This document shows, piece by piece, positions 16,811 through 64,000 of a stretch of 64,000 nt of DNA. Under the pieces are notes generated by a model. The model did not search any database and was not told the DNA's origin. It saw only the letters and a list, made by a program, of their open reading frames with translations. A program made the position numbers and the translations under genes. Source of the stretch: a virus (lineage: Duplodnaviria; Heunggongvirae; Uroviricota; Caudoviricetes; Demerecviridae); the IMG/VR virus record IMGVR_UViG_2974640449_000001, positions 64,242 through 128,241 of that record; one strand, written 5' to 3'. Position 1 is the stretch's first letter, and each line of letters opens with the position of its first letter.

Positions 16811-16820
16811 ACAAATTAAT

Positions 16821-17081: not shown

Positions 17082-17092
17082 CGGAGAAGATT

Positions 17093-17422: not shown

Positions 17423-17427
17423 ACAAC

Positions 17428-32548: not shown

Positions 32549-32578
32549 ATTGCTAAACAGCGTTAAATTCTCTATAAT
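32549..32578 (+). promoter_or_regulatory. early promoter TTGCTA-18-TATAAT
   Basis: aaTTGCTAaacagcgttaaattctcTATAATatacatataaattaaagagaagga. Confidence 0.55.
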
Positions 32579-32610
32579 ATACATATAAATTAAAGAGAAG
32601 GAAGATTAAA

Positions 32611-33831
32611 ATGTTAAATAAACGAATGGAGGGTAAGTTACTCTCCCAAGAGCTGGCGTTTGGGATAACGAAGAATGTCCCAAAAGCACGGGCTGTTATC
32701 GGCAGTATAAATATTGCTGAAATCTTTGAAAAGTCTCGTGGTATTATCAGTATCCCAAGCAACTTCAAAGATTATTTTTCTTGGGCTAATGGGAAGCCTT
32801 CTAAACACGGATTTAACTTTGAAGCTCGCTTCGACTTCTGGGCTGAATCTAAGAAAGGTATGGAAGGGGTAGCGTTTATTACTTGTGGTGGACGTTTAAT
32901 TTTCCCACTGTACCGTGACGATGATACTGTACGCGGTGTGGATTTAGACTCCGGTTGTATTACGGCACAAGATATTACTAACCTAATGCCTCTATTCCCT
33001 AGAGCAGTATTGGCAACTATGACTGGCAGTGAACGAGCAGCGTTCAATGACTTTCAAGACCATATCGCTAGTCTTTGTGACATGCGTACACGTTGGCTAG
33101 AAGGTAAAGAAAAACCAATTAGCGGAGGTCGTCTAGACCCCGACTATGAAGGCAGTATTACTCCTGCTGCGGCAGAGGCAATTGCAGAATTAGAGGAACC
33201 ATCATTGGCATCTTCATCTTGGAGCATGGTAGGTCGTCGTGGTATGGGGAATAGTCCTTTTACTGTCAAAAGAGACAAGCGACCAAACCCATGGGAACTA
33301 ACAAACACACCAGAAGGTAATGTATTCATTACCAAAGAAATGCTTGAAAAAGCAGCCTCAACAACTATTTCAAACGAAACTATTCTAAAAGGTAAAGAAG
33401 ATATGACTAAAGCAACTCAAGTAAAAGCAGGCATGATTAACGTAAACAAAGAAGCTCTAAAACAAGTAGGTTACTTGAACGCGGGTCGTGCTTCAAACAA
33501 ACTAATCAAAGAATCTATCCGCCCACTGTTGAACGCTATGTTCAAACCGACTTTCATGCAGAAAATCGCAATGAAGCTTTTCAAAATGGAAAACCCAGTG
33601 GATGTTGCACTAAAATCAGGTATGTCTGATTTGCTATGTGCTCAAATGGTTCAAGCGATTGTTGAAATCAAAGGTGTTGATAACCCATACGTTCGTGAAG
33701 TAACTCAAGCTGGTATCACCCAGGCAGGTTACGAGCTATCAAAAGCTATTCCTTTTGAAGAAGCTATCGACAAAGTGGTTGCTAACCTAGAAAAAGGTGC
33801 TGAAGGCATCGTGGCAAAAATCTCAAAATAA
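32611..33831 (+). CDS. hypothetical protein (406 aa)
   Basis: Strong RBS AGAGAAGGAAG; no recognisable motif. Confidence 0.55.
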   Translation: MLNKRMEGKLLSQELAFGITKNVPKARAVIGSINIAEIFEKSRGIISIPSNFKDYFSWANGKPSKHGFNFEARFDFWAESKKGMEGVAFITCGGRLIFPLYRDDDTVRGVDLDSGCITAQDITNLMPLFPRAVLATMTGSERAAFNDFQDHIASLCDMRTRWLEGKEKPISGGRLDPDYEGSITPAAAEAIAELEEPSLASSSWSMVGRRGMGNSPFTVKRDKRPNPWELTNTPEGNVFITKEMLEKAASTTISNETILKGKEDMTKATQVKAGMINVNKEALKQVGYLNAGRASNKLIKESIRPLLNAMFKPTFMQKIAMKLFKMENPVDVALKSGMSDLLCAQMVQAIVEIKGVDNPYVREVTQAGITQAGYELSKAIPFEEAIDKVVANLEKGAEGIVAKISK

Positions 33832-37017: not shown

Positions 37018-37281
37018 ATGGCAGATTTTTGGGACAAACACCTTACAAAAGAGCAGCAGTACGAAATCGTAGATTCAGTTGCAGGTACTTGTGATACAGG
37101 TTGTAATGCTGAATACTGGCAAAAAGAGTTTGGCTTCAGCAATGAAGTTCGTGACGAGTTAAACTGGGATTTTCCTAGTCTAGCTGCTAAATTCGAGCTA
37201 TTCCGCTGTGAAGATTGCATGTGGTGGGGTGACATGGGTGAAGTTGGTGACTGTAATGAATGTGGTGGAGAGTTAGTATGA
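37018..37281 (+). CDS. Cys-rich zinc-ribbon protein (87 aa)
   Basis: CDTGC...CEDC...CNEC. Confidence 0.45.
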   Translation: MADFWDKHLTKEQQYEIVDSVAGTCDTGCNAEYWQKEFGFSNEVRDELNWDFPSLAAKFELFRCEDCMWWGDMGEVGDCNECGGELV

Positions 37282-38204
37282 AATTCAACGTACAAGATTT
37301 GATTGACCGTGGCTTGGTTAAAGCTAAAGAATATGATAATGGACTAAAAGTATTGAAGTACGACCGCTCGGTATTCTTCAAAAACTTGTGGCATCTAGAC
37401 GAACGCTTGCTTGAGTGTCGTGGTCGCGTGGTTGATGCTGACTGGAATGTGATTATTAATCCATTCAAAAAAGTATTCAACTATGGTGAAAACGGTACTG
37501 GTAACGAGCTACGAAAAGACTGTCTGTACCGTGAAGTACACAAGCTCAATGGTTTCCTGGGTTGTGTTACTCGTTCCTCAGAGTATGGTATGTTGTACTC
37601 TACTACTGGTACACTAGACTCAGAGTATGCGCAGATGGTTAAAGATATGTTTCTAGAGCATACTCGTCACATTGATGAAATTCATCCAGATTTCACACTG
37701 ATGTTCGAAGTATGTCACCAAGACGACCCACATATTGTACCAGAGCAGGTAGGTATCTACTTGATCGGTTGCCGCCATACTGGTGAGGGCGAAGAATGCG
37801 AAGAAGAGCAGTTTACAGAGAAAGAGCTAGATAAACTTGCACGTCATTTCGGTTGGCGTCGTCCAGAGCATCGTCTAGATACTCTGGAAAATATCCTAGC
37901 ACGAGCTAAGGCATCTAAAACAGAAGGTGTTATGGTGTGTTCAGCACTTAACGACGAGCACTTGTTTAAGTACAAGACTCCACACTACCTGTCCAAGAAA
38001 CTACTTATGCGTCTAGGTAAAGCCCGTGTAGAACAGCTGTTTGACAATCCAGAACAGTTTAAAAAGAGCTTAAAGGATGAGGAGTTCTTCGGTTTTGTAG
38101 ATTACGTGGCTCGGTACATCGGTCGAGATATGTGGAAAACACTAAAAGACCAAGAGCGTCGTGAACTGATTGAGTGCTGGTTCGACAAAAACAACGCTTT
38201 TTAA
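37278..38204 (+). CDS. RNA ligase 1 (T4 Rnl1-like tRNA ligase)
   Basis: LLECRGRVVD ~ T4 Rnl1 ALECRGIMF; VHKLNGFLG in the position of the Rnl1 motif-I lysine block (TKEDGSL). Confidence 0.65.
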   Translation: MKFNVQDLIDRGLVKAKEYDNGLKVLKYDRSVFFKNLWHLDERLLECRGRVVDADWNVIINPFKKVFNYGENGTGNELRKDCLYREVHKLNGFLGCVTRSSEYGMLYSTTGTLDSEYAQMVKDMFLEHTRHIDEIHPDFTLMFEVCHQDDPHIVPEQVGIYLIGCRHTGEGEECEEEQFTEKELDKLARHFGWRRPEHRLDTLENILARAKASKTEGVMVCSALNDEHLFKYKTPHYLSKKLLMRLGKARVEQLFDNPEQFKKSLKDEEFFGFVDYVARYIGRDMWKTLKDQERRELIECWFDKNNAF

Positions 38205-38205
38205 A

Positions 38206-38234
38206 TTGCCAAAGCAAGGAAGCTTTGATATAAT
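38206..38234 (+). promoter_or_regulatory. early promoter TTGCCA-17-TATAAT
   Basis: aaTTGCCAaagcaaggaagctttgaTATAATatctgtagaaattgaggagatt. Confidence 0.5.
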
Positions 38235-38259
38235 ATCTGTAGAAATTGAGGAGATTGTT

Positions 38260-38523
38260 ATGATTATTTCTAAGTATGATGTAGTCGTGAGTTTTGGTAC
38301 AAGTAGTTACTGCGATGTAACTATGTGCCAAAGTGATTTTTGTCAGATTAAGGACGAACTTGTAGAGAGACTAGGAGAGTTTGGTGGAGAGATCTGTGTA
38401 ACACTTACCACTATCTCTTTCACTATCTCAGGTGTTGAAGACGCTGCATACGCCGAAGAGCTAGAAACTAAGCTAGCTGATATTGGTGAATACTTACTTG
38501 AATGTTTATGGGAGCAAGAATAA
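38260..38523 (+). CDS. hypothetical protein (87 aa)
   Basis: RBS GAGGAGATTGTTATG. Confidence 0.4.
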   Translation: MIISKYDVVVSFGTSSYCDVTMCQSDFCQIKDELVERLGEFGGEICVTLTTISFTISGVEDAAYAEELETKLADIGEYLLECLWEQE

Positions 38524-38927
38524 TGAAAAAACTATATTTGATTCGTGGTGTGTCTGGTTCTGGCAAAACTACTCTAGCTAAGTCAATGGAACAAGGTATG
38601 CGATACTCTCGTGCTGTTGCTGCTGACGATTACTTCATGTTTGAAGGTAAGTATCTATTTGATGTTAACAAGCTACATGCAGCGCATCAATGGTGTCAAG
38701 ACCAAGTTGACGGTCTTATGATTTGTGAGATGCACCACATTATTGTGCATAACACCTTCACTACAGAAAAAGAAATGAAGCCGTACTTTGACTTAGCGGA
38801 GAAATACGGCTATGAAGTAACCACCCTAGTGGTTGAGAACCGTCACGGCAATGATTCAGTACACGATGTGCCAGAAGAAACATTAACACGCCAACGTCAA
38901 CGCCTACGTGCCAACATCCGTCTATAA
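38523..38927 (+). CDS. P-loop polynucleotide 5'-kinase-like protein (Pnk kinase-domain homolog)
   Basis: MKKLYLIRGVSGSGKTTLAK Walker A motif; 134 aa; sits between the RNA ligase and a phosphoesterase. Confidence 0.55.
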   Translation: MKKLYLIRGVSGSGKTTLAKSMEQGMRYSRAVAADDYFMFEGKYLFDVNKLHAAHQWCQDQVDGLMICEMHHIIVHNTFTTEKEMKPYFDLAEKYGYEVTTLVVENRHGNDSVHDVPEETLTRQRQRLRANIRL

Positions 38928-38936
38928 GGAGAAGAT

Positions 38937-39500
38937 ATGCGTCTACAGTTCGGAGCAAAACTAAACCCAGATGTGAATTACTTTATCACGTCTGACCTAC
39001 ACTTCTTTCATACTAACATCATGAAGTTCTGTCCAAAAACACGTCCTTGGGCTGAACGCGATGAAATGAATGAAGCACTTATTGCACATTGGAACTCTAT
39101 TGTGGGTGAAGATGATGTAGTCTTCCACATTGGAGACTTTTCATTCGCAGGGATGGATAAAACTCAGGGTATCCTAGACCGATTGAATGGTACAATTATC
39201 TTTGTAATGGGCAACCATGATAAGACCATTCGAAATCAGTTGAAGTCTCACAACAAGTTCGAATATCTCGAAGTTACTTATAATAAAATCAAAATTTGTA
39301 TGTTCCACTATGCGATGCGTGTTTGGAATCAACAACATCGTGGAGCAGTTCACTTTTATGGGCACTCCCATGGGTCACTACCAGGTACTGGACGTTCTAT
39401 GGATGTAGGCTTCGATGCTCACGGTAAAATCCTGCCTCTAGATTGGGCAGTAAAACAAATGCTTAAAATTGAAAACACTGAAACAGAGGATCACCACTAA
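38937..39500 (+). CDS. calcineurin-like metallophosphoesterase (putative 2',3'-phosphatase partner of the kinase)
   Basis: DLHFFH, GDF, GNHD, GHSH motifs; 187 aa. Confidence 0.6.
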   Translation: MRLQFGAKLNPDVNYFITSDLHFFHTNIMKFCPKTRPWAERDEMNEALIAHWNSIVGEDDVVFHIGDFSFAGMDKTQGILDRLNGTIIFVMGNHDKTIRNQLKSHNKFEYLEVTYNKIKICMFHYAMRVWNQQHRGAVHFYGHSHGSLPGTGRSMDVGFDAHGKILPLDWAVKQMLKIENTETEDHH

Positions 39501-40078
39501 TGAAAAAGTTTCTAGTATTACTTGCTGCTACCCTATCTTTTAACGCATTTGCAGGTAGCTGTGCACAATCAGTTAATAACATTAGTGGCTTGGATAAAGC
39601 CACTAAACAACAAATGATAATTCAGTGTGAGCAGGCAAAGCTTGACACTATCACACAAATACCAGGGGAAGTATCTGACGCTACCGTTGAAAAGATGGAT
39701 AAATGGTCAGAAATCTCCTTAAAGTTTGCTAAAGCTATCGGTGTAGCTGCACGTGAAGTAGGGGTAGCTACTAATGAGTTCTTGCAGACACCCGCAGGTA
39801 AGTTCACTGCCGCAATTATACTATGGAAGGTATTAAGTATATCGCAATGGACTATGTTCTTCTTAATTACTGGTGTAACTACTATTGTAGTTCGTAGTTT
39901 CATACGTCTTATGCGATTGTCCCACTATGAAGAACGCGAGACAAAGTTCTTTGGCAGGCGTAAGCAGCCAATTTACAGCACCTGGCGTGACTTAGGAGAT
40001 ACCCAAGCATTCTTTGTTGTATGTGGTTATGCTGTAATAATTATAGTATTCTTAGTTGCAGGGATTAATATATTATGA
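39500..40078 (+). CDS. secreted / membrane protein (signal peptide plus 2 C-terminal TM helices)
   Basis: MKKFLVLLAATLSFNAFA signal peptide; hydrophobic segments. Confidence 0.5.
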   Translation: MKKFLVLLAATLSFNAFAGSCAQSVNNISGLDKATKQQMIIQCEQAKLDTITQIPGEVSDATVEKMDKWSEISLKFAKAIGVAAREVGVATNEFLQTPAGKFTAAIILWKVLSISQWTMFFLITGVTTIVVRSFIRLMRLSHYEERETKFFGRRKQPIYSTWRDLGDTQAFFVVCGYAVIIIVFLVAGINIL

Positions 40079-40500
40079 TTAAATATGTAATAACATTGGT
40101 ATGCCTAGTATTAACGCTAGGCTTTTCTTTCGATGCTGCTGCGGATGACAGCATCTACCTAGGTGGCTTCTCATACCATTTTGAGGACGACCGAAATAAC
40201 ATTAACCCGTTGCTATTCTATCAAAAAGATGGTTACGTAGGAGGCTATTTTTATAATAGCTTTGAAAATCATAGCCTATTACTAGGAAAAGACTTTAGTA
40301 TACACAGGGATGGTATTACTATTGGAGTAGTACCTAGTATTATCTATGGGTATGAGAAGAAACAAACATTGGCTGCGTGTACAGGTAAAATATGTCTGGG
40401 AGCGTTGCCATACATAAAATTCGATTATGATGAGCATTGGAGTCCTGCGGTTATAGTAGGCGGTACATTCTTTACTGCTATCGTAGAGTATAAATTTTAA
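40075..40500 (+). CDS. small outer-membrane beta-barrel-like protein (Ail/Lom/PagP-sized)
   Basis: Signal peptide; alternating aromatic/hydrophobic pattern; C-terminal ...VEYKF ends in Phe, typical of an OMP sorting signal. Confidence 0.4.
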   Translation: MIKYVITLVCLVLTLGFSFDAAADDSIYLGGFSYHFEDDRNNINPLLFYQKDGYVGGYFYNSFENHSLLLGKDFSIHRDGITIGVVPSIIYGYEKKQTLAACTGKICLGALPYIKFDYDEHWSPAVIVGGTFFTAIVEYKF

Positions 40501-40506
40501 ATCTTA

Positions 40507-40537
40507 GGTTGCTTCGGCAACCTTTTTTACGTATAAT
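40507..40537 (+). promoter_or_regulatory. terminator hairpin GGTTGCTTCGGCAACC-T6 whose loop supplies the -35 (TTGCTT) of an early promoter (TATAAT at 40532)
   Basis: aGGTTGCTTCGGCAACCttttttacgTATAATatatacataaattaaagagaagga. Confidence 0.6.
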
Positions 40538-40567
40538 ATATACATAAATTAAAGAGAAGGAAACAAC

Positions 40568-41437
40568 ATGTCAAATATTAGCATTATGTGTAATGGTTCT
40601 AAATCTTACGAACTACAAGTAGGCTTCACTAAGTTCTCAGATGGAGCAGAAACCTGTACTATTCGCAAGACTAATGTAGACCTTACACAATCAACCTTTG
40701 TATGCGTGTCAGTTAAGTTTAAAGACGTTACTCGTGATATTGTACGTCTACTTCTGGTAAAAGACGCACTAGACCAAATGCGTGCTGAAACCTGTATCAA
40801 CTGGAAACGTATCGCCCTAAATATGCCATACATCCCTAACGCCCGCGCTGACCGTAAGTTTGGTTTCGGTATGCCGATGCCAATGAAAGTCTTTGCTAAC
40901 CTTATCAATGCAATGGACTTCGATGAAGTAATGGTAGAAGACCCTCACTCAGATGTTAGTGTAGCATTAATCAATAATGCTACTGTACTAGACCAAGCAT
41001 CCTTGGTTAGCATGATGGAGCCTCATATTAATCGCTATATGCCAGAGTTTACTTTGTGTGCTCCAGACCTTGGTGCTGCTAAGAAAATCTTTGATGTAGC
41101 GTTTGCTCTAGAAAAACGAGACTGGATTCAGGGTCTAAAAATCCGTGATGTACTTACTGGCGACATTGTTAAGTGTGACCTAGTGCAAGATGAAGTGCCT
41201 GAAAATGTGTTAATTGTAGACGATATTTCAGATGGTGGAGCTTCATTCAAGTTCTTGGCTAAGAAACTAAAAGAGCGTGGAGCTAAGAAAGTAGGTCTAT
41301 ATGTTACTCATGGTATCTTCTCTAAAGGGCTAGACCCAATCCGTGAAGATATTGACTATGTATTCATTCATAACTTTATTGGTGGTTATATCAATGAAGC
41401 TAATGTACTAGCATTCAACGAAGGTAAAGATGTATGA
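40568..41437 (+). CDS. ribose-phosphate pyrophosphokinase (Prs)-like protein; candidate ADPR-pyrophosphate synthetase (NARP1 Adps-like)
   Basis: PRPP-type nucleotide-binding loop VLIVDDISDGGAS; 289 aa; adjacent to the macro and NAMPT-like genes. Confidence 0.65.
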   Translation: MSNISIMCNGSKSYELQVGFTKFSDGAETCTIRKTNVDLTQSTFVCVSVKFKDVTRDIVRLLLVKDALDQMRAETCINWKRIALNMPYIPNARADRKFGFGMPMPMKVFANLINAMDFDEVMVEDPHSDVSVALINNATVLDQASLVSMMEPHINRYMPEFTLCAPDLGAAKKIFDVAFALEKRDWIQGLKIRDVLTGDIVKCDLVQDEVPENVLIVDDISDGGASFKFLAKKLKERGAKKVGLYVTHGIFSKGLDPIREDIDYVFIHNFIGGYINEANVLAFNEGKDV

Positions 41438-41910
41438 TTAAAGTAGTAAAAGGTGATATGGTCAAACACCTACAATCAAAAGACCATCTAGATGCATACG
41501 CTCACCAGTGTAACTGTTTTTGTAGAATGGGGAGAGGCATTGCGCCTCTTCTAGCTAAAGCAGTTCCTGGTCTTAGACAGGCAGACGATATGACTGTGCC
41601 TGGGGATAAATCTAAGTTGGGTAGTGTGTCTTTAGCTGCACATCCCAACGGTGCAGTAGTATTCAATGTATATGGACAATATCATTGGCACGCTCATAAA
41701 GTAGCCCCAGGTAGAAATACTGACTACGATGCGCTAGAGAAAGGGCTGTGGAGAGTGTTAGCGGATATGCTAAAAGACGACATGAAAACGTTGGGTTTAC
41801 CTCTGATTGGTTGCGGTCTAGCAGGGGGTGATTGGGATAATGTAGTGCTCCCAATGATTCACAAAGTATTTGATAATTCAGGCGTTGACGTAACTATTTT
41901 TAAATTGTAA
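41434..41910 (+). CDS. macro-domain protein (ADP-ribose binding / hydrolase fold)
   Basis: AHQCNCFCRMGRGIA ~ macro NAANxxLxGGGGVxxAI; PLIGCGLAGGDW ~ macro FPAISTGIYG. Confidence 0.6.
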   Translation: MIKVVKGDMVKHLQSKDHLDAYAHQCNCFCRMGRGIAPLLAKAVPGLRQADDMTVPGDKSKLGSVSLAAHPNGAVVFNVYGQYHWHAHKVAPGRNTDYDALEKGLWRVLADMLKDDMKTLGLPLIGCGLAGGDWDNVVLPMIHKVFDNSGVDVTIFKL

Positions 41911-41920
41911 TTGCTTAACT

Positions 41921-41949
41921 AGCTAAATTTACGTATAATATATTCATAA
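41921..41949 (+). promoter_or_regulatory. early promoter TTGCTT-17-TATAAT
   Basis: aaTTGCTTaactagctaaatttacgTATAATatattcataaattaaagagaagga. Confidence 0.55.
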
Positions 41950-41971
41950 ATTAAAGAGAAGGAAATAATCT

Positions 41972-43582
41972 ATGTCATACAACATCCCTTACCTAGCAGC
42001 ACTTATCACTGACGGCTACAAAGTATTCCACCCGTTTGCTTACCGCCTAGGCACTACTCATGTATACAGTAACGGTACTGCCCGTTTTAATAAACACTCG
42101 AACGTACCAAATAACGCTGAAATCGTTCACTTTGGTATCCAAATGGCTCTACAGAAGCTAAACACATTGTGGAACGAGAACTTCTTCAAACACCCTAAAG
42201 AAGCAGTTCTAGCAGAATACCAACGTGTTATCTCTGGCTACCTAGGCAAGAAAATTAGCGTAGACCATATTGCTAAACTACACGATGTTGGTTATCTGCC
42301 AATCGAAGTTAAGTCACTACCCGAAGGTTCTCTTGTACCTTACGGTGTGCCACCATACACTATTCATAACACTGTGGAAGGTCTAGGTTGGGTGACTAAC
42401 TTGCTAGAAACTCCATTCAGTGCTGAATATTGGCCAGCAGTAACATCTGCAACTACTGCGTTTGCTTACCGCTCTCGCTTTGAACAAGTACCTGCACTAC
42501 GTGCTGGCGGCATGATTAAGTTCATGGGTCACGACTTCTCTGCTCGTGGACTATGGGGTATGTTTGCACCAGAGCAGAATGGTCACTTGACTTCATTCGT
42601 CGGTACAGACTCTATGGTATCAGGTCTAGCAATGGAACAATACTATGATGCTCGTATCGACAAAGAGCTAGTAATGGCTTCTGTTGATGCTACAGAACAC
42701 TCAGTAATGTGTTCATACGAAACAGAGAACGAGCTAGAATCATTGATTCACTTGATTAGCAACGTTACTCCAAACGGTATTATCTCTATCGTTTCGGACA
42801 CATGGGACTTCTGGCAGTTGGTAACTCAATACCTACCACAAATTAAAGACCTAATCATGTCTCGTGATGGTACAGTGGTTATTCGCCCAGACTCAGGCGA
42901 CCCAGTTGAAATCTTGTGTGGTTTGGAAAAACACCCTTACTTCTACGATACTATCGACGAAGCATACGCTAAACTTGACGGCTTCTTTGAAGTAGAAGGT
43001 AAAGTTGTAGATATTGCAGGACAGTGGCGTCGTGCGTCTATCAATCTAGATGGACGTGTTGGTTTTGGTAAACCAATTCCAGAGCACGAAGTGAAAGGTC
43101 TAGTAGAATGTCTATGGGATACCTTCGGTGGTACAGAAGTTGATGGTCTACGTCTACTAGATTCACACATTGGAGCTATCTACGGTGACTCTATTACTCT
43201 AGAACGTCAAGACCAAATTATTAATCGTTTGATTGCTAAAGGTTTCGTTCCTAGCGTAGTCCTTGGTATTGGTTCGTTCACATACCAGTACGTTACTCGT
43301 GATACTCACGGCTTTGCTATTAAAGCTACTGACATTCAAGTTGGTGAAGGCAATCACATTGCTATTAGCAAAGACCCTAAAACTGACCAGAGCAAAAAGT
43401 CTGCTAAAGGCTTGCTGATGGTCGTAAAAGACGGCGATAGCTACCGTCTAGTGGCAGACGTTACTCCAGAGCAGGAAGCTTCTGACGAAAACTGCCTAAA
43501 AACTATCTTCAAAGACGGTGAGTTCGTTAAACGTACCTCACTTGCTGAAATCCGTGCTCGAATTGACTCGCATTTCGAATAA
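41972..43582 (+). CDS. nadV: nicotinamide phosphoribosyltransferase (NAMPT/NadV) family protein; candidate Namat of a NAD+ reconstitution pathway
   Basis: N-terminal ALITDGYKVFHPFAY ~ NAMPT LLATDSYKVTHYKQY; 536 aa. Confidence 0.8.
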   Translation: MSYNIPYLAALITDGYKVFHPFAYRLGTTHVYSNGTARFNKHSNVPNNAEIVHFGIQMALQKLNTLWNENFFKHPKEAVLAEYQRVISGYLGKKISVDHIAKLHDVGYLPIEVKSLPEGSLVPYGVPPYTIHNTVEGLGWVTNLLETPFSAEYWPAVTSATTAFAYRSRFEQVPALRAGGMIKFMGHDFSARGLWGMFAPEQNGHLTSFVGTDSMVSGLAMEQYYDARIDKELVMASVDATEHSVMCSYETENELESLIHLISNVTPNGIISIVSDTWDFWQLVTQYLPQIKDLIMSRDGTVVIRPDSGDPVEILCGLEKHPYFYDTIDEAYAKLDGFFEVEGKVVDIAGQWRRASINLDGRVGFGKPIPEHEVKGLVECLWDTFGGTEVDGLRLLDSHIGAIYGDSITLERQDQIINRLIAKGFVPSVVLGIGSFTYQYVTRDTHGFAIKATDIQVGEGNHIAISKDPKTDQSKKSAKGLLMVVKDGDSYRLVADVTPEQEASDENCLKTIFKDGEFVKRTSLAEIRARIDSHFE

Positions 43583-43603
43583 TAAATTAAAGTAAATAAA
43601 AGA

Positions 43604-43628
43604 AAAGGCTACCTAGGTAGCCTTTTAT
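43604..43628 (+). terminator. rho-independent terminator
   Basis: AAAGGCTACC-tag-GTAGCCTTTT. Confidence 0.7.
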
Positions 43629-46336: not shown

Positions 46337-47323
46337 ATGGAAGCAATTAAATACCCAAGCACCGGTCAATTCCGTAACGCAGCTAAATTCCTACAACATA
46401 ACACTCCGGCAGGTTCTCTAGTGCCTATGGTTGGTACTGTTAAAATCCACGGTACTAACGGTAGTATGGTTATGCTAGAAGATGGTACTATCCACTTCCA
46501 GTCTAAGAGCCGTGTACTAGATACCCACAATGATAACTCTGGCTTCTGTAACTACATGCTAGAACAGCCTGTAGAAGAACTATTTGAGAAGTTCATTGCT
46601 CAGTACAAAAAATATTACGGCAAGCACCCAGCATTCCCTATCGAAATCGCAGGTGAATGGGCAGGTAAAGGTATCCAAAAAGGTGTGGCTGTCAGTGAAG
46701 TAGATAAGTTCTTCACTATCTTCGGATTCCGTGTTGGTTGCGAAGTAGATAATGGCGGTAAGCTAATTGGTTGGCTAACTAACCACAAGTTCAACGATGT
46801 GAGCCTACACGAAAGTCGTATCTACAACGCTTACGACTTCGGTTGCTACCGAATCACTATCAACACTGCAATGCCTCAATTGGCAACTGAGCGTCTTCAA
46901 GAGCTTACCCTAGAAGTAGAGAAGGAGTGTCCGGTAGGTAAATACTTCGGTATTGAAGGTGTTGGTGAAGGTATCGTATGGACTCCGGTTGACGATGCAC
47001 TAGCAGACAACCCAGGTGGCTGGTTCAAGGTTAAAGGTCAGAAGCACAGCGTTAGCAAAGTCAGCAAACTAGCGTCTGTAGACCCTGAAAAACTACGCAA
47101 CATCCAAGAGTTCGTGGATTACGCTGTAACTGAAAACCGTCTAGAACAAGGTCTACAGGAAGTGGGTCTGGACATGAAACTAACTGGAAAGTTCATCGGT
47201 TGGGTTAACAAAGATATTTACAAAGAAGAAAAGGATGTTCTGGAAGCTAATGGCTTGACTATGAAGGAAGTTGGCAACCTACTAAGTCAAAAAGCTCGTG
47301 AATTTTACTTCTCTAAGATGTAA
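46337..47323 (+). CDS. RNA ligase 2 family (T4 Rnl2-like) nucleotidyltransferase
   Basis: Motif I VKIHGTNGSM matches Rnl2 EKIHGTNFSL; 328 aa. Confidence 0.65.
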   Translation: MEAIKYPSTGQFRNAAKFLQHNTPAGSLVPMVGTVKIHGTNGSMVMLEDGTIHFQSKSRVLDTHNDNSGFCNYMLEQPVEELFEKFIAQYKKYYGKHPAFPIEIAGEWAGKGIQKGVAVSEVDKFFTIFGFRVGCEVDNGGKLIGWLTNHKFNDVSLHESRIYNAYDFGCYRITINTAMPQLATERLQELTLEVEKECPVGKYFGIEGVGEGIVWTPVDDALADNPGGWFKVKGQKHSVSKVSKLASVDPEKLRNIQEFVDYAVTENRLEQGLQEVGLDMKLTGKFIGWVNKDIYKEEKDVLEANGLTMKEVGNLLSQKAREFYFSKM

Positions 47324-55499: not shown

Positions 55500-56020
55500 T
55501 TTAGCACCTATAATATTATCTCTAGAATTTGCACCTATAATATTATCTCTAGAATTTGCACCTATGATTTGGCTTGTTATGATGCGAAGCATTGAGTCTA
55601 GCCATGATTCCCCATGTCAATTCTAAAGCATAGGAATTGCACCTAATTGTATAGGTTATTTCGATAATAGTAAAAGACGGATTGACACCGGTTCAAGGAG
55701 CGACCCCCGTAATTGTCAATTGGTTTTTTCAAAAATCTGCCCCAAACGCCCCAAAACTTTATTTTCCTCCATAAAACCCACCAAATAGCACCAAAATCTC
55801 CATATATCTCTAGAATTCGCACCTATCTCATATCCCTAGCACCTATCAATTTTGCACCTATCAATTTTGCACCTACCCCAATAGCGGCATGTTTTGTGCG
55901 CAGCACGAGTCTAGCCGCAAACCCCCATGTCAATTTTGCACCTATAGAATTTGCACCTATAGAATTTGCACCTACATGTATCACTTTTGCACCAATCGGA
56001 TTTGCACCCGCAGGCGCAGA
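55500..56020 (+). repeat. iteron-like array: about 13 copies of a TTTGCACCTAT(a/c) core, including 28-bp and 19-bp tandem units, plus two copies of a GAGTCTAGCC...CCCATGTCAATT block
   Basis: ttTGCACCTATaatattatctctagaa x2.5 at 55500-55575; GCACCTATcaatttt x2 at 55840-55880; tttGCACCTATagaa x2 then variants at 55925-56015. Confidence 0.75.
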
Positions 56021-56086
56021 GGATTAGAGATTACTAATAAAGTATGCCCTAAATTAGGGTTCACTACATTAGGGATTTCTAATAGA

Positions 56087-56170
56087 CGTCTGGATGGCTA
56101 TACGTCCAGATGGCTAGAAGTCTAGAAGTCCAGATGGCTATACGTCCAGATGGCTAGAAGTCCGTATGCC
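56087..56170 (+). repeat. tandem direct repeats (about 22-bp unit tacgtccagatggctagaagtc, 3 or more copies)
   Basis: cgtctggatggctatacgtccagatggctagaagtctagaagtccagatggctatacgtccagatggctagaagtccg. Confidence 0.7.
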
Positions 56171-56199
56171 ATACCGTATAAAATATGGCACGATTTTTG

Positions 56200-56320
56200 C
56201 TTATTAAAAAGTTATCCACAACTGTATATTTATACATGGCTCTAAAACGCTCTATACAGAGTTATCCACAACCTTATCCACCGCAAAACTACTGTATATT
56301 TATACAGTGCTTTTCAGGTA
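56200..56320 (+). promoter_or_regulatory. DnaA-box cluster (TTATCCACA x2, TTATCCACC) interleaved with CTGTATAtttATACAG palindromes; putative replication-origin element
   Basis: DnaA boxes at 56212-56220, 56262-56270 and 56274-56282; palindromes at 56222-56238 and 56291-56308. Confidence 0.55.
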
Positions 56321-56557
56321 GCAGATTATTCCGAATACCGTTTAAAGCTCTTGTAAGCCTCGCTAACAGCATCCTAGCGTTGTAGCAATACCCTAGCAAG
56401 GGGTAAGCCCTAAACAGCCCACACGTAGTACATGCAAGAACCATGCCAACCTGCCTGACGGGCGCGCCGAAATGATAACTATTCTCATTTGCCCGTATAC
56501 AGTACGCCATACGGTAAAAGGTCAAACAAAACGGCGTACCGTGACGCCGTAACAGTT

Positions 56558-56695
56558 TTAATTTTTTAGTCGCTCTACTACCCAATCGCAGCGGCGGTCT
56601 AACTTATCTAATTTTTCGTCAATAACTCGCTGATTCTCTAGTATCAGCTTTTGATTGTTAACGACTAGCTGCAACAGCTCTATAATCTTTTTCAT
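56558..56695 (-). CDS. small coiled peptide (45 aa), paralog of 48874-49026; not in ORF track
   Basis: ATGA-coupled to the upstream minus-strand gene; MKKIIELLQLVVNNQKLILENQRVIDEKLDKLDRRCDWVVERLKN. Confidence 0.3.
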   Translation of the reverse strand: MKKIIELLQLVVNNQKLILENQRVIDEKLDKLDRRCDWVVERLKN

Positions 56696-56916
56696 CGCGG
56701 CTCAAAATCTTTTACTATTTCTAGAAATTCACGGATAGTAATTCCATCGCATCGTATTTCTTCATCCGAGTGTTGAGTATGGCGTACTGTAAACTTGTCG
56801 TATTCTACTTGCTCAATTTCTGAGACTAGCACACCTTTATAGTATAAACCACGTTTTTTGTGTGGCTCATAAACTTGTTGCAAGAATGATACTAACATTT
56901 CACTAGGTCTTAACAT
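56692..56916 (-). CDS. hypothetical protein (74 aa)
   Basis: Minus-strand ORF in a translationally coupled chain. Confidence 0.45.
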   Translation of the reverse strand: MLRPSEMLVSFLQQVYEPHKKRGLYYKGVLVSEIEQVEYDKFTVRHTQHSDEEIRCDGITIREFLEIVKDFEPR

Positions 56917-57158
56917 TAGTCTATCCCCTGTTCACTGATAAACTCACCTATAGCAAACATGCGCTCGCTATCGTTCGGGTAAGCGTCTGAATCAGCCATT
57001 TCAACAATAATAGCTAAATTAGATAAGCCTTGTTTAGCGATTACTAAATCACGGAGCATGTTTTGAGTTACTACGTCTAGCGGATTATGTATCAAACGTG
57101 TATTGAGCATATGCTCAATACGTGCTAGTGCTTCCTGACTTTGTTTTATAGTAGCCAT
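56916..57158 (-). CDS. hypothetical acidic protein (80 aa)
   Basis: Coupled ATGA overlaps on both sides. Confidence 0.45.
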   Translation of the reverse strand: MATIKQSQEALARIEHMLNTRLIHNPLDVVTQNMLRDLVIAKQGLSNLAIIVEMADSDAYPNDSERMFAIGEFISEQGID

Positions 57159-57352
57159 TACCAGGTAGCCTCCAATTGATAAAGCTTCTCAATTACATCG
57201 AATTGCTCGCCTTGCTCATTTTGCCAAACTTGCCCAAATTCGGTGTTTTCTACGTGCTTCATTGCCATAGGTATTGTGTAATATTGCATTTCCCCCATAA
57301 ATGCAATATTACACATCCAGACTTGCCCTAGGGTTTCGACATGTACTTTCAT
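57158..57352 (-). CDS. hypothetical acidic protein (64 aa)
   Basis: Coupled. Confidence 0.4.
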   Translation of the reverse strand: MKVHVETLGQVWMCNIAFMGEMQYYTIPMAMKHVENTEFGQVWQNEQGEQFDVIEKLYQLEATW

Positions 57353-57520
57353 TTTTTAGCCTCCATTAGCTCGCCTAATGAGATTACTATAACCATTGCT
57401 AGAAATGCTCCAGTCATTTTTCAATCACCAAAATTTTGTTATAGTCCATACGTACAGTAAAAAACGGCTTGCCGTTTCTAACCGCCCACAATAGGGCGGT
57501 AGCGTAGTTGTCAAACTCCA

Positions 57521-57841
57521 TTAGACTTTTAACCAACCATTAACAAACGTTGCGCCTTCATAAATAGAACGCCATGTTAATAAATCAGCTCTAGCGTATT
57601 GAAAAAGCATACCGCCATTAGTTGCGCCCTTAGCAAAAGCAATGGCATATGTCAATACTTTTGCTTTTAAAATTTCTTCGACTGACTCAAACAAACTAAT
57701 ATGGGTTGTCAGGTCAAAATGATACTCTTTGTTTGACAAAAAGCATTGCGCCATTTCCATGCGCTTGCTGATAGAAGTGTCAGCATTCAATTGGTAAGCC
57801 GTGCTTACTACTGGAGTAGTTAGATATTGTTTGTATTCCAT
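57521..57841 (-). CDS. hypothetical protein (106 aa)
   Basis: Minus-strand ORF; RBS present. Confidence 0.45.
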   Translation of the reverse strand: MEYKQYLTTPVVSTAYQLNADTSISKRMEMAQCFLSNKEYHFDLTTHISLFESVEEILKAKVLTYAIAFAKGATNGGMLFQYARADLLTWRSIYEGATFVNGWLKV

Positions 57842-57900
57842 TTTGTTGCCCTCGCTTTCTAGCGGTAGTTAGTGGGGACTTTCGTCCCCCCGTTGATTAA

Positions 57901-58284
57901 TTAGTGCGCCATAATGCAATCAGGGTTTTCCCCGATTACCGTATATTCTTCAATCGCACGCTTACCAACACTTTCCCAAGATTGGTCATTTTTTGTTTTA
58001 TTAGCTACACCGTGTAGGTAATAGCCGTTACCAGTATCACGCTCTAATGAGAATGGTTTACCCATATCAAAAGCATTATTATAAAAGTGATGTTCCCAAG
58101 TACCTTCGACATCAAACCAGCGCCACATATAATGCTCGAACATAGCTTTCATTTTGTCTAGTGCTAGCTGACATTCAACCTCGCTGATAATATCAGCCTC
58201 AAAACCGTTGCGAATAATGGCAACGGCTTTATTCCAACCTAGTGAATCAATGGTATCAGACAAGACAAGAAAATCAATTTTCAT
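57901..58284 (-). CDS. hypothetical protein (127 aa)
   Basis: Start moved to the ATG at 58284 behind RBS GAGAGG (track start 58332). Confidence 0.45.
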   Translation of the reverse strand: MKIDFLVLSDTIDSLGWNKAVAIIRNGFEADIISEVECQLALDKMKAMFEHYMWRWFDVEGTWEHHFYNNAFDMGKPFSLERDTGNGYYLHGVANKTKNDQSWESVGKRAIEEYTVIGENPDCIMAH

Positions 58285-58392
58285 GGTAAAACCTCTCGCC
58301 AAAATCGGTGGCGGTATCCGTTTAGGCATCAATTGCCTAGGTCTTTATAATACTAAAACCTAGGCAGGATGTAAAGTGATTTAGCTCACATT

Positions 58393-58728
58393 TTACGATG
58401 TATAGTGAAAATCTACTTGGTCTATACCAATTTCACGCCATACCATAGAACTTGTTTCAAGTCCATAGTTATCTAGCATATCTGATAAATTGGCTAGTTC
58501 GTCTAGGTCGCAATAGCCCTCGATACCCATATCAGAGTTATAGAACATCATACCGTAGGCAGGATGAATCATAACGGCTAACTGAGAATCGTTATCAATA
58601 TACCATATGGTATTTTCAGGGTCTTCATTAAATGCGTTCCCGTCTTCCTTAGTAACAAGGATTATTGAGTCTAGACTCAATAGTGTTGGTGTTTCGGTAC
58701 AGTTAAAAGCCATTATTTCAATCTCCAA
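58393..58728 (-). CDS. hypothetical strongly acidic protein (111 aa)
   Basis: RBS TTGGAGATTGAAATAATG on the minus strand; D/E-rich. Confidence 0.45.
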   Translation of the reverse strand: MEIEIMAFNCTETPTLLSLDSIILVTKEDGNAFNEDPENTIWYIDNDSQLAVMIHPAYGMMFYNSDMGIEGYCDLDELANLSDMLDNYGLETSSMVWREIGIDQVDFHYTS

Positions 58729-59049
58729 TACGGGTAAAAACCTACCGCCATAGCGGTAATAAACATTACTGATTCAAACATACTATGCCTACCTTGTCAA
58801 ATAGTTTTTTCATGGTAGAAGCCGAGGCGATAAACTCGCCAGTGTCGATACTTACACACCACCAAATTACATCAAAGAAAATACGATACATTTTACCGCC
58901 TCCGTTGTTTGGGTAGGTCTATATTTACTCATATTCTAGCCCACTTGTCTAATAACATTTAGTTATATAAAACGATTCTGGCAACGCCAGGCGTTATAAG
59001 CGCTGTAAGCCATTCTGAGAGGTTCTAACAAAAAGCCTTACTTTAATAT

Positions 59050-59180
59050 GTCTAGGTTGTGGATAACCGCTCACAATGGATTCTAGGGGCAGGAAACGCC
59101 ATTCTATATCGGATAAGCTGTGATTTAGGGTAGATAACTTCCATTTTCCTGTTGATAAGTTGTGGATATACAGTAGATAA
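59050..59180 (+). promoter_or_regulatory. second DnaA-box cluster in inverted orientation (TGTGGATAA, TGTGGATAT, GATAAG variants)
   Basis: 59058-59066 TGTGGATAA is the reverse complement of TTATCCACA; 59161-59169 TGTGGATAT; ggataagctgtg at 59111. Confidence 0.5.
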
Positions 59181-59424
59181 CCAGTATTATTAGAGATTGC
59201 TAATGTGAATAAGTCTGTTGATAAAAAGTTGGCACGAAAATTTCCATAGAACAAAGTCAAATAAAAATTCGCTATATAATATAAACAAAAATTCTTTGAC
59301 AAATAAAAATCCTTCGTTCTAGTTCTATTCACAAAAGTGCATGAATATGCAGTTTTTAGGGCAAAAGTGCATAAACCATTTAGTAATGCAATGGTATGGC
59401 TAAGGGCTAAAATCGCTTAGAATC

Positions 59425-59470
59425 GCATACAGAGCGTTTTAAAGGTATGTATAAATATACAGTAGTTTTT
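59425..59470 (+). repeat. inverted copy (about 85% identity) of the 56216-56310 palindrome/DnaA element
   Basis: The reverse complement aaaactactgtatatttatacatacctttaaaacgctctgtatgc aligns with 56216-56258 and 56283-56308. Confidence 0.55.
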
Positions 59471-59749
59471 AAGTTGGCATGATTTTTGAGGGTATGACAA
59501 AGTTCACATTTTATATATACAAGTTTGACTTTTCATTCTAGCTATGGTAGACGCGCGCCCGTTTCCTTATATTTATAGGGCAAAAATACCTGATAGGCAA
59601 AACCTATCAATCTAGTGTTTTTTAAAGATTTAAACGATTAGACTAATTTTCTCAATTCGCTATTATATACCCATACCAACGAGACAGGGCAGCAACAAAA
59701 CCCTATCAAGTTGAGTATAGAAAGACTGAAAAGTTTTTCAAAAAAGTAG

Positions 59750-59778
59750 TTGACAAGCCAAACGGCTTTTGAGATACT
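59750..59778 (+). promoter_or_regulatory. promoter TTGACA-17-GATACT upstream of the pre-early-like genes
   Basis: gTTGACAagccaaacggcttttgaGATACTactaacg; followed at 59858-59890 by the perfect inverted repeat GTTAACCGA..TCGGTTAAC. Confidence 0.4.
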
Positions 59779-59942
59779 ACTAACGTTCCCAAGGGAACAC
59801 GCTCTTTAACAATTTGGAATATGTGATTTGACCCATTGCTTACTGGACTGTTTAACGAGTGTTAACCGTTAACCGATTCATAACGAGTCGGTTAACTGAG
59901 AAACACTCTCATTTAAACTAACCTATTAAGAGGAAAAATATC

Positions 59943-60386
59943 ATGGCTAAGAAATGGACAGAAGAATCAGCAGCAAAAGCGGCAGAACTTTACAATGCTA
60001 AACTAGAAGCAGACGGTAAAGAAGCAGCAGCGCACAACGATTTTCTAGATGAAATCGCTAAACACGAAGAAGTTCAAGCGGTATCAGGTAAAGCAGTGCG
60101 CTCAAAACTTACTGTTATGGGTATCTATCAGAAACCGGACGCAGTTGCAAGTGTTGCGAAAACTAATACAGTGCGAAAAGAGCATTATGTACGTGCTCTA
60201 GCTCATACGCTAGGCTTAGATGTTGATGATTTGGACAGCCTTAAAAACGCTAAAATGTCAGCCCTAGAAGCTGTTTCGACTGCAATCGGTATTACTGACG
60301 TTATGACAGCAAGTGCAAAAGACTACAAACCAGATTTAGAAAAGGTTTGTGAAGCATTCGAAAATGCTCGCGGTCTAGACATTTAA
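59943..60386 (+). CDS. hypothetical protein (147 aa), pre-early-type
   Basis: RBS GAGGAAAAATATCATG. Confidence 0.5.
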   Translation: MAKKWTEESAAKAAELYNAKLEADGKEAAAHNDFLDEIAKHEEVQAVSGKAVRSKLTVMGIYQKPDAVASVAKTNTVRKEHYVRALAHTLGLDVDDLDSLKNAKMSALEAVSTAIGITDVMTASAKDYKPDLEKVCEAFENARGLDI

Positions 60387-60399
60387 CCGTCTAATAAAT

Positions 60400-60480
60400 T
60401 GGGGTAGCAATACCCCAATTTACAGTGTAAATTGCTTATCAGTTTACACTGTAAATTAAACCCGTAAATGGAGATATAAT
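60400..60480 (+). promoter_or_regulatory. hairpin (GGGGTAGCAATACCCC) plus 13-bp inverted-repeat operator (TTTACAGTGTAAAT / ATTTACACTGTAAA) and GGAGAT RBS
   Basis: ggggtagcaataccccaaTTTACAGTGTAAATtgcttatcagTTTACACTGTAAATtaaacccgtaaatggagatataatcATG; a second copy is at 60868-60955. Confidence 0.55.
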
Positions 60481-60481
60481 C

Positions 60482-60853
60482 ATGTCACAACAAACTCAAA
60501 TCATTGCATTAGGTTCACTTCTAGAAGCAGGTAACGCAAAATCAGAGCTACAACAAAAAGTTGCTAAACTAATTAACGTGCGTTTTGGTTGGCGTAAAAA
60601 CGACCGTATTTCTAGCAATACGTTACAAGCTGTTATCAATTTGATTGAAACATACGGTGGCAAAAAGCTGTTTCTAGAAAGCGAGCTAGATTCATTAGTA
60701 TATGCTAATAAAGCGGCTAAACTGACAGTATTCAGCCTACTATGTGAGGCGTTAAAAATCACTGATGTAACAGAGCGTAAAAATATTATGTCTATTGTTA
60801 CTAGTGGCGGGGAGCGCGAATTTCCGGTTCAAGTTCTAAAAGCATTCTGTTAG
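60482..60853 (+). CDS. hypothetical protein (123 aa)
   Basis: RBS ATGGAGATATAATCATG. Confidence 0.5.
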   Translation: MSQQTQIIALGSLLEAGNAKSELQQKVAKLINVRFGWRKNDRISSNTLQAVINLIETYGGKKLFLESELDSLVYANKAAKLTVFSLLCEALKITDVTERKNIMSIVTSGGEREFPVQVLKAFC

Positions 60854-60867
60854 TCAGGTATAAATTA

Positions 60868-60955
60868 GGGTAGCAATACCCTAATTTACAGTGTAAATTT
60901 ACCCAAGTTTACACTGTAAATTTCAAACCAACCCCATAGTGGAGATATACACAAA
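60868..60955 (+). promoter_or_regulatory. second copy of the hairpin plus palindromic operator
   Basis: gggtagcaataccctaaTTTACAGTGTAAATttacccaagTTTACACTGTAAATttcaaaccaaccccatagtggagatatacacaaATG. Confidence 0.55.
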
Positions 60956-62610: not shown

Positions 62611-62676
62611 TTAGTGTTTTATTAATAGGCATTCTAGCGAGTGCCTATTGTTGAACCCACTAATGGAGATAGACAA

Positions 62677-63180
62677 ATGTCAATTGAAGCAGTATTAACT
62701 CAAAAAGCAGAAGCTAAACAAGAAGCCAAAAAACAAAAAGCTATCTATCAAGAAGCTAAACACAAGCACAGCATAGCAGCTAGTAAAGCGTTATTTACAG
62801 AAGCCGATAAAGAGCTAATAGCCGAGCAGGTTAACACGCTTAAAAGTTTTGGTACTACGCCTCTTATGTCATGGGGGGACTTATCAAAACATGGCAATAT
62901 TCTAAAATATCTCAAGCTGTTTGATATTGACAAGGACGTGAAATTATTTGCTACGTCTATCCTTTGTGACGACGACTTGAAAAAAGCTATTACTGAATAC
63001 GACACGGCAAAAGAAATTTACTGCAAAGCATTGCGTGAATTAATGTTGTCTAAAGCTACACTTCTAAATGCTTTGATTCAGAATAAATTGTTTGGTTTCT
63101 TACGTGTCAGTACCAAGAAGTTAGCAAAAGCGGCAGCAGATATGCGCAAGCATTCAGAACGCTACAACACACAATACTAA
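62677..63180 (+). CDS. hypothetical pre-early protein (167 aa)
   Basis: Hairpin AATAGGCA-ttctagcgag-TGCCTATT then RBS AATGGAGATAGACAAATG. Confidence 0.45.
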   Translation: MSIEAVLTQKAEAKQEAKKQKAIYQEAKHKHSIAASKALFTEADKELIAEQVNTLKSFGTTPLMSWGDLSKHGNILKYLKLFDIDKDVKLFATSILCDDDLKKAITEYDTAKEIYCKALRELMLSKATLLNALIQNKLFGFLRVSTKKLAKAAADMRKHSERYNTQY

Positions 63181-63260
63181 TCCTACGCCATACGGCTCGA
63201 CGGGCGCAAATGTGACGCCCGTCACACTTTACAAATTACCCAATTATGGAGATTAAACCA

Positions 63261-63899: not shown

Positions 63900-63925
63900 A
63901 TAAAGAAAAGCTGTACAAATAAGAA

Positions 63926-63950
63926 TGGCTCTCAATTGAGAGCCATTATC
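63926..63950 (+). terminator. hairpin terminator
   Basis: ATGGCTCTCAATTGAGAGCCAT followed by T-rich sequence. Confidence 0.5.
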
Positions 63951-64000
63951 ATCTAGGGGGCGGTAATGAGACTAGTTCTCATTTGCATATAGGGGTACAC

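Follow-up and report, generated by a model that had tools for sequence, protein, structure and literature searches.

Depletion of nicotinamide adenine dinucleotide (NAD+) is among the commonest anti-phage strategies of bacteria. The question raised by the locus described here is whether three neighbouring phage genes, coding for a Prs-like, a macro domain and a NAMPT-like protein, form a pathway that rebuilds NAD+ and, if so, which one. The genes occupy positions 40568-43582 of a 64,000-nucleotide stretch of viral DNA (henceforth the window; positions 64,242 to 128,241 of IMG/VR virus record IMGVR_UViG_2974640449_000001). The window corresponds to record 64242-128241 of Vibrio phage Ceto, i.e. 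the right half of a T5-like genome (Demerecviridae, Cetovirus), and the three-gene region is 100% identical to Ceto record 104241-108541 (MG649966/NC_042094). The isolation host of this phage is Vibrio harveyi BAA-1116. Given the 88-91% identity to the operon of Vibrio phage Gary, the conserved residues and the same gene order, we consider it very probable that the Ceto locus is a NARP1-AP counter-defence operon. This three-gene version, including the exact Ceto locus, is already described in a January 2026 preprint and is not new.

Gene content of the locus

Calling of open reading frames (ORFs) placed three adjoining genes on the same strand, here given with the reactions predicted from their homologues:

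40568-41437, + strand: adps (Ceto gp175, ORF1), Prs-like, 289 amino acids (aa); putative synthesis of ADP-ribose pyrophosphate (ADPR-PP) from ADP-ribose (ADPR) and ATP
41434-41910, + strand: adpp (Ceto gp176, ORF2), macro domain, 158 aa; putative phosphatase of ADPR-1''-phosphate (ADPR-1''-P)
41972-43582, + strand: namat (Ceto gp177, ORF3), NAMPT-like, 536 aa; putative synthesis of NAD+ from ADPR-PP and nicotinamide

The stop codon of adps (TGA, 41435-41437) shares the tetranucleotide ATGA with the start codon of adpp (ATG, 41434-41436), and a GAAGG Shine-Dalgarno-like motif lies 9 nucleotides (nt) 5' of the adpp start. The preliminary description of this DNA had reported a three-gene cluster with an overlapping stop and start, and both the ORF coordinates and the ATGA overlap were confirmed. 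Profile searches also agree with the three families that it had proposed. In Pfam, ORF1 matches Pribosyltran_N/Pribosyl_synth/Pribosyltran, ORF2 matches Macro (PF01661, 31.6 bits vs. a cut-off of 22) and ORF3 matches NAPRTase/NAMPT_N, and the corresponding PHROGs are phrog_619 (E=4e-81), phrog_335 (E=4e-51) and phrog_448 (E=3e-177). Chance ORFs can be ruled out for these genes, and for the PnuC-like and NDT-like genes discussed below, because all of them are long, annotated and have strong profile matches. The public labels are 'ribose-phosphate pyrophosphokinase' for gp175, 'hypothetical protein' for gp176 and 'nicotinamide phosphoribosyl transferase' for gp177.

The published pathway and the Ceto operon

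The RES-domain defence aRES converts NAD+ into nicotinamide and ADPR-1''-phosphate, a product that neither Adps nor the two-gene NARP1 pathway can use, so aRES defeats NARP1 (Osterman et al., bioRxiv 10.64898/2026.01.28.702374, January 2026). According to the same preprint, 15% of the NARP1 phages carry a macro-domain gene in association with their NARP1 operon; the operon of Vibrio phage Gary overrode aRES, an effect that was lost without any one of its three genes, and the purified Gary Adpp turned ADPR-1P into ADPR (bioRxiv 10.64898/2026.01.28.702374). The pathway, consisting of Adps, Adpp and Namat, was named NARP1-AP, 'NARP1 with an associated phosphatase'. Ceto is listed by name in Table S1 of that work (MG649966_00171 as Adps, _00172 as MACRO and _00173 as Namat), and Table S2 gives predicted aRES homologues in genomes of V. 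harveyi and V. parahaemolyticus (bioRxiv 10.64898/2026.01.28.702374), so the host group of Ceto does contain the defence at which the pathway is aimed.

The Ceto macro sequence of Table S1 is identical to the ORF at 41434-41910 of the window. Between Ceto and Gary the identity is 90% for Adps, 88% for Adpp and 91% for Namat, and the lengths are equal within one residue. The Ceto locus fits the operational definition of NARP1-AP in the preprint: its three genes are contiguous, the PF01661 match is above the cut-off, and Ceto has an entry in Table S1. The proposal of a NARP1-type Adps/Namat pair with a macro domain is thus supported by the Table S1 entry and by the identity to Gary. Likewise, the guess that the macro domain feeds in ADPR made from ADPR-1''-P has its experimental counterpart in the 88%-identical Gary Adpp. 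The implied novelty of a three-component variant did not survive, as NARP1-AP is already published with Ceto on its list. A follow-up literature search found no further publication on NARP1-AP.

The following scheme would apply to Ceto. A NADase defence would break NAD+ down, either to ADPR and nicotinamide (SIR2, TIR, SEFIR) or to ADPR-1''-phosphate and nicotinamide (aRES). In the latter case Adpp would first dephosphorylate ADPR-1''-P at the 1'' position, which leaves ADPR; Adps would then pyrophosphorylate ADPR with ATP to ADPR-PP, and finally Namat would couple ADPR-PP to nicotinamide, yielding NAD+. This chemistry was shown for the Gary operon (bioRxiv 10.64898/2026.01.28.702374) and for the NARP1 of phages SPbetaL1 and Bas63 (bioRxiv 10.1101/2024.02.11.579819; PMC12774641).

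The first gene: Adps or phosphoribosyl pyrophosphate synthetase

The public labels suggest a simpler reading, i.e. that the two flanking genes are an ordinary synthetase of phosphoribosyl pyrophosphate (PRPP) and a Nampt which together raise nicotinamide mononucleotide (NMN) and NAD+, in a NARP2-like or housekeeping route completed by host enzymes, and that the macro protein is unrelated to them. The first gene does not behave as this reading would have it. Ceto Adps has 35% identity over the aligned core to the biochemically characterised Adps of SPbetaL1 (E=3e-23), and its best match to a Prs structure is weaker (E=7e-12). When membership of the curated Prs families is judged by TIGR01251 or the PRK equivalogs, the protein lies under every NCBIfam Prs cut-off (the best score is 93.9 bits vs. 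113), the Prs equivalogs giving 38-80 bits against cut-offs of 296-536. Moreover, the Adps relatives of Gary and SPbetaL1 use ADPR, and the SPbetaL1 enzyme gave no Prs-type product.

The catalytic lysine is kept: SPbetaL1 K162, equivalent to B. subtilis Prs K197, corresponds to Ceto K191, which also aligns with the DKRR motif of E. coli Prs, and SPbetaL1 R164 corresponds to Ceto R193. The phosphate-binding loop reads DDISDGGAS in Ceto vs. DDMIDTGGT in E. coli Prs. Taken as a whole, the identity, the scores and the adjacency to Namat place the predicted product of ORF1 in the phage Adps clade and not among the bona fide Prs enzymes.

The third gene: a probable Namat and its hypervariable insert

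The best PDB match of Ceto Namat is the Namat of SPbetaL1 (9w5x/9w5w, E=4e-116), whereas true Nampts follow at about 1e-40. The same tendency is seen in the bit scores: 391.8 bits to SPbetaL1 Namat vs. about 141 bits to human and mouse Nampt, and 311 bits to SPbetaL1 Namat vs. 101 bits to the Nampt of Vibrio phage KVP40, i.e. a threefold difference. The protein also carries the adenine-clamp motif specific to Namat:

43271-43303, + strand: selectivity-clamp helix motif GSFTYQYVTRD (aa 434-444), which fits GS-X-Phi1-X-Phi2-X-Phi3-TRD

This consensus is the Namat signature as defined in PMC12774641, and the clamp-helix residues F436, Y440, T442 and R443 are conserved in Ceto. The catalytic core is identical in the two proteins (SPbetaL1 D13, Y15, F189, R192, D215, the catalytic His, R306 and D308 are Ceto D14, Y16, F189, R192, D213, H243, R305 and D307). 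Among the reported ligand-contacting residues 19 of the 21 are identical, the exceptions being a backbone contact, where Ala is replaced by Ser, and Arg40. These similarities indicate that ORF3 belongs to the Namat type rather than to the PRPP-using Nampts.

The salvage reading with an ordinary PRPP synthetase and Nampt does find some footing here, since ORF3 exceeds the NCBIfam cut-off of PRK09198 (419.7 vs. 405) and Namat is reported in the literature to retain some PRPP-dependent NMN activity in vitro. NARP2 proper has a phage-encoded NMNAT partner. A tblastn search with KVP40 Nmnat reached E=0.68 at best in the window and had no match in record 1-50000 (record 50001-64241 lay outside the search). 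In the window or the first 50 kb of the Ceto genome neither NMNAT nor NadR was found, and none is annotated, which argues against the PRPP/NMN route. In this respect Ceto also differs from NARP2 (Nampt and Nmnat) of KVP40, which likewise includes a NAMPT-family enzyme and counters NAD+ depletion: Ceto lacks Nmnat, and its enzyme is of the Namat type. We consider the salvage reading highly improbable.

The distribution of variability along Namat is far from uniform, and one segment stands out:

42923-43051, + strand: hypervariable Namat insert (aa 318-360), located right after the RPDSGDP active-site strand

These residues fall in an insertion of about 45-47 aa that is absent from SPbetaL1 Namat; it is not the variable clamp loop described in PMC12774641. 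Compared with the Namat proteins of Gary, Thalassa, Quinn and Brizo, Ceto Namat is 19%, 12%, 9% and 21% identical, respectively, within residues 318-360, and 97% identical to each of them in the rest of the protein. In VF16, a V. parahaemolyticus phage that is less closely related to Ceto than those four, the identity is 91% within the segment and 95% in the rest, and the insert region of VPT02 and KIT04 has 89-95% identity to that of Ceto. At least four insert types, of differing lengths, circulate in phages that come from a single host strain. The insert is exchanged by recombination mosaicism; selection by a host factor would be a speculation.

The middle gene: a probable Adpp

A profile built from 12 NARP1-associated macro proteins, Ceto's included, matches yeast Poa1p (6LFQ/6LFU) over its full length, with E-values of about 3e-12 to 7e-11, which reproduces the HHpred result of Osterman et al. 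Ceto Adpp has all 11 of the invariant positions of the NARP1-associated macro family. With the single Ceto sequence as query, the PDB search returned no Poa1p at E<=1. On this sequence evidence gp176 would be a Poa1p-like ADPR-1''-phosphate phosphatase. Yeast Poa1p (PDB 6LFQ) belongs to the same macro-domain subclass as Ceto Adpp and catalyses the same reaction as the Gary orthologue; its role, clearance of a tRNA-splicing by-product, is unlike that of the phage protein, and its sequence similarity to Ceto is low.

A different function of the macro protein has to be weighed at this point, namely that it is mainly a de-ADP-ribosylase of the TARG1/DarG kind, directed against defences such as DarT, and sits within NARP1 for co-expression or as a source of ADPR feedstock. 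The single-sequence PDB matches of the Ceto protein are TARG1/OARD1 (E=7e-11) and bacterial macrodomains, its sole NCBIfam and PADLOC match is DarG (E=2e-8 and 4.5e-12, respectively), and DarG, SCO6735 and TARG1 stand above Poa1p in the macro profile search. The DarG score, however, is 33.9 bits, far under the cut-off of 250. It is also apparent from the sequence alignment that each of the 12 NARP1-associated macro proteins has Ala or Gly (A130 in Ceto) at the site of the catalytic Asp125 of TARG1 (GCGLD), and that these proteins share no conserved Lys in the region of TARG1 K84, after the NxYGQ strand. The 88%-identical Gary Adpp dephosphorylates ADPR-1P and is required specifically against aRES. 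A primary de-ADP-ribosylase function is thus very unlikely, although the macro protein may have a secondary hydrolase activity. The other uses that the preliminary description had suggested for the macro domain, handling of cyclic or glyco-ADPR signals and removal of ADP-ribosyl modifications, found no support, yet may exist as side activities.

A further explanation starts from the yeast homologue and from the gene neighbourhood. As Poa1p acts in tRNA splicing, the macro protein could clear ADPR-1''-P or Appr>p arising from RNA repair or splicing, as Poa1p does after Tpt1, and could be tied to the RNA-repair genes nearby: on the 5' side of the operon, at 1-3 kb, there are a Rnl1-like ligase, an AAA_33 kinase and a metallophosphoesterase, and on the 3' side, at 3 kb, an RNA ligase. 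Repair by T4-type ligase and polynucleotide kinase is not known to yield ADPR-1''-P, which counts against this explanation. The annotation of the genome regions examined includes no Tpt1/KptA 2'-phosphotransferase, the Appr>p-generating enzyme. Translational coupling ties the macro gene to adps, whereas two unrelated genes and a terminator separate it from the RNA-repair genes. The RNA-repair link was rejected on these grounds, and we regard it as exceedingly improbable.

The apparent RNA-repair set itself flanks the operon, with the Rnl1-like ligase/tail-fibre attachment homologue, the AAA_33 kinase and the metallophosphoesterase at 37260-39500 and an RNA ligase 2 at 46337-47323. Its probable role is to counteract anticodon nucleases, with no relation to the macro gene.

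Macro homologues (phrog_335, 'phosphatase') occur in 2,716 records of the phage collection, many T4-like phages among them, while Adps homologues occur in 1,179 records, under half the macro count. As macro records are more than twice as numerous as Adps records, many macro genes must sit outside NARP1 operons, and there their role is unexplained by the NARP1-AP model.

Weight of the assignment

Several observations speak against the identification of the Ceto locus as NARP1-AP, or at least temper it. The Adpp step is known from one preprint only, where the assay was heterologous, in E. coli and with phage T7, and both the chemistry and the anti-aRES phenotype of the Ceto operon are inferred by homology from Gary, SPbetaL1 and Bas63. 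Among proteins of solved structure, BT1257, SCO6735, DarG and TARG1 are nearer in sequence to the macro protein than Poa1p is; since hydrolases of other ADP-ribose conjugates thus rank above Poa1p, Adpp may have additional or different substrates. The single-sequence AlphaFold2 model of the macro protein (pLDDT 52, pTM 0.53) was too poor for a fold search, so the macro assignment rests on the Pfam and the profile-versus-PDB matches. In Namat, the Arg40 of SPbetaL1, which stacks on the adenine from the SCL clamp loop, is unalignable, as the Ceto loop is 3 residues longer; the residue opposite to it is N44 by global alignment and K41 by HMMER. We note that the Namat clamp loop has been described as variable (PMC12774641). 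Finally, the insert variant of Ceto Namat differs from that of the tested Gary Namat.

The three rivals, i.e. de-ADP-ribosylation, salvage by Prs and Nampt, and RNA repair, together retain only a small share of the probability.

Relatives and related NAD+ pathways

Every Vibrio T5-like relative examined has the order adps-adpp-namat, and its adps and adpp either overlap or are spaced by 3 nt. Those phages of Table S1 that infect Pseudomonas and Acinetobacter carry the macro gene one or two genes past namat, and the Alishewanella phage Slicko01 has adps-namat without a macro gene.

The closest known system is the NARP1-AP of Gary, a related T5-like Vibrio phage from the same isolation host strain. 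It has the same genes in the same order as Ceto, a tight coupling of adps and adpp, and the same promoter/leader cassette 5' of adps and of namat; the adps/adpp junction is a 1-nt overlap in Gary and the 4-nt ATGA in Ceto. The two-gene NARP1 systems of Bacillus phage SPbetaL1 and E. coli phage Bas63 (bioRxiv 10.1101/2024.02.11.579819; PMC12774641) share the core chemistry and have homologous enzymes, including the catalytic Lys of Adps and the catalytic core and clamp-helix motif of Namat. They differ from Ceto in that they lack the macro phosphatase, whereas Ceto Namat has in addition the insertion of about 47 aa and a longer clamp loop. The identity of SPbetaL1 to Ceto is only 35% for the aligned Adps core and 42% for Namat.

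NARP3 of the T5-like phage Bas30/TrudiRoth (PMC13464706) consists of a PnuC-like and a NadR-like protein, and Ceto too has a PnuC-family transporter. The Ceto gene, however, is paired with an NDT-like gene, has no NadR-like partner and is located 25 kb from NARP1-AP; the transporters of Ceto and TrudiRoth are 32% identical over 63% of the length.

Predicted transcription signals

The boundaries of the unit and its promoters were predicted from the following elements and from the two genes that precede adps:

39500-40078: predicted membrane protein, 5' of the PagP-like gene
40075-40500: PagP-like lipid A acylation homologue, directly 5' of adps (phrog_3600, E=8e-40; no Pfam match)
40506-40523, + strand: terminator-like hairpin AGGTTGC-TTCG-GCAACCT followed by T6, which ends the PagP-like gene; 5' boundary of the unit
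40509-40567, + strand: promoter/leader cassette 1, with TTGCTT (40509-40514), a 17-nt spacer, TATAAT (40532-40537) and the leader ATAAATTAAAGAGAAGGAAA with a Shine-Dalgarno sequence
41911-41971, + strand: promoter/leader cassette 2, directly 5' of namat, with TTGCTT (41911-41916), a 17-nt spacer, TATAAT (41934-41939) and the same leader
43603-43626, + strand: terminator-like hairpin AAAAGGCTACC-TAGG-GGTAGCCTTTT, 20 nt past the namat stop; 3' boundary of the unit

Both hairpins came from a terminator scan. The first folds as RNA with -10.3 kcal/mol (z=-3.3) and shares sequence with the -35 element of the adps promoter, while the second folds with -14 kcal/mol (z=-2.5). There is no hairpin between adpp and namat. 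The 36-nt cassette TACGTATAATATATwCATAAATTAAAGAGAAGGAAA is present in 2 copies in the 64 kb (0 expected), one 5' of adps and the other 5' of namat, and the promoter/leader cassette is kept in Gary, again 5' of both genes, as well as in Quinn and VF16. A generic scan for promoters did not pick up those of adps and namat, whose -35 element TTGCTT scores 3/6; they were found by eye and by pattern search.

We infer that the cassettes are sigma70-type promoters followed by a shared leader with a Shine-Dalgarno sequence. The presence of two cassettes means that the 'operon' probably consists of two promoter units, adps-adpp and namat. Expression would start from the promoter before adps, with adpp translationally coupled to it, and from the second copy before namat, and hairpin terminators would close the unit at both ends.

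The cassette in its wider form (TTGCTT, 17 nt, TATAAT and then ATAAATTAAAGAGAAGGAA) precedes only three genes in the 64 kb, namely adps, namat and gp163, and the same is seen in Gary. The third copy, slightly diverged, is located at 32573-32610, 5' of gp163 (32611-33831). The 406-aa product of gp163 has no Pfam match and a single PHROG match, to phrog_19380, a family of unknown function. If co-regulated with adps and namat, gp163 would be a candidate counter-defence gene.

An NDT-like/PnuC-like pair in the tRNA cluster

The preliminary description had placed two distant genes of the window within a broader theme of NAD and nicotinamide salvage:

14725-15273: NDT-like gene (deoxyribosyltransferase-like; PF05014, 38.6 vs. 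28.8)
15273-15899: PnuC-like gene (PF04973, E=3e-30; TIGR01528, 86.6 bits vs. 42.45)

Both genes are real, and the PnuC-like protein matches 4QTN over its full length (E=9e-17). They overlap by 1 nt and lie within a tRNA cluster, 25 kb from NARP1-AP. The broader theme is borne out only in part: the PnuC-like gene is a true member of its family, but the partner is NDT-like and not NadR, the distance is large, and the pair is found elsewhere near ribonucleotide reductase. The pair is also not the published NARP3 (August 2026), which combines PnuC with a NadR-like enzyme (PMC13464706), because the adjoining gene in Ceto is NDT-like (PF05014).

Unrelated phages, TacPo2 of Pantoea and YP1 of Proteus, have the adjacent NDT-like/PnuC-like pair as well, and in YP1 it is close to nrdD, a gene for anaerobic ribonucleotide reductase. 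The NDT-like gene of an Aeromonas phage has ribonucleotide reductase genes beside it, and its neighbour is not a recognisable PnuC. Staphylococcus phages account for 393 of the 514 NDT matches, yet Staphylococcus is missing from the top genera of Adps carriers. A general coupling of NDT to NARP1 was rejected for this reason, i.e. the NDT-rich Staphylococcus phages are not prominent among the Adps carriers. The recurrence in unrelated phages and the mismatch between NDT and Adps carriers together mark the pair as a separate conserved module, for which salvage of deoxynucleosides is at least as likely a role as salvage of NAD+.

Two ideas could nevertheless connect the side observations with NAD+. 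A host factor could recognise or inhibit Namat by way of the insert, and phages would then escape it by exchange of the cassette, or the NDT-like/PnuC-like pair could be a NadR-less import route for nicotinamide riboside that releases nicotinamide for Namat. That at least one of these ideas is true seems to us unlikely. A search of a literature library found no publication on the combination of NDT-like and PnuC-like genes, and both the Namat insert and the recurrent pair appear to be undescribed.

The tRNA cluster itself spans 9348-17514 of the window and comprises 25 annotated tRNA genes along with small ORFs, an HNH endonuclease and a 'tRNA amidotransferase' gene. At the far end, window positions 55700-64000 are 100% identical to Ceto record 1-8301, i.e. 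they form an 8.3-kb terminal direct repeat, which encodes DNA-transfer and deoxynucleoside-5'-monophosphatase genes. Such terminal direct repeats are typical of T5-like genomes.

Significance

Being catalogued in the preprint that defines the pathway, the locus adds nothing new to the field, and what novelty remains is found in the side observations. For annotation, the consequence is that gp175, gp176 and gp177 should read Adps, Adpp and Namat, respectively. The hypervariable Namat insert and the NDT-like/PnuC-like pair are inexpensive leads for research on NAD+-centred conflicts between phages and their hosts. In these conflicts NARP1-AP is the answer of the phage to aRES, a defence that evolved to defeat plain NARP1.

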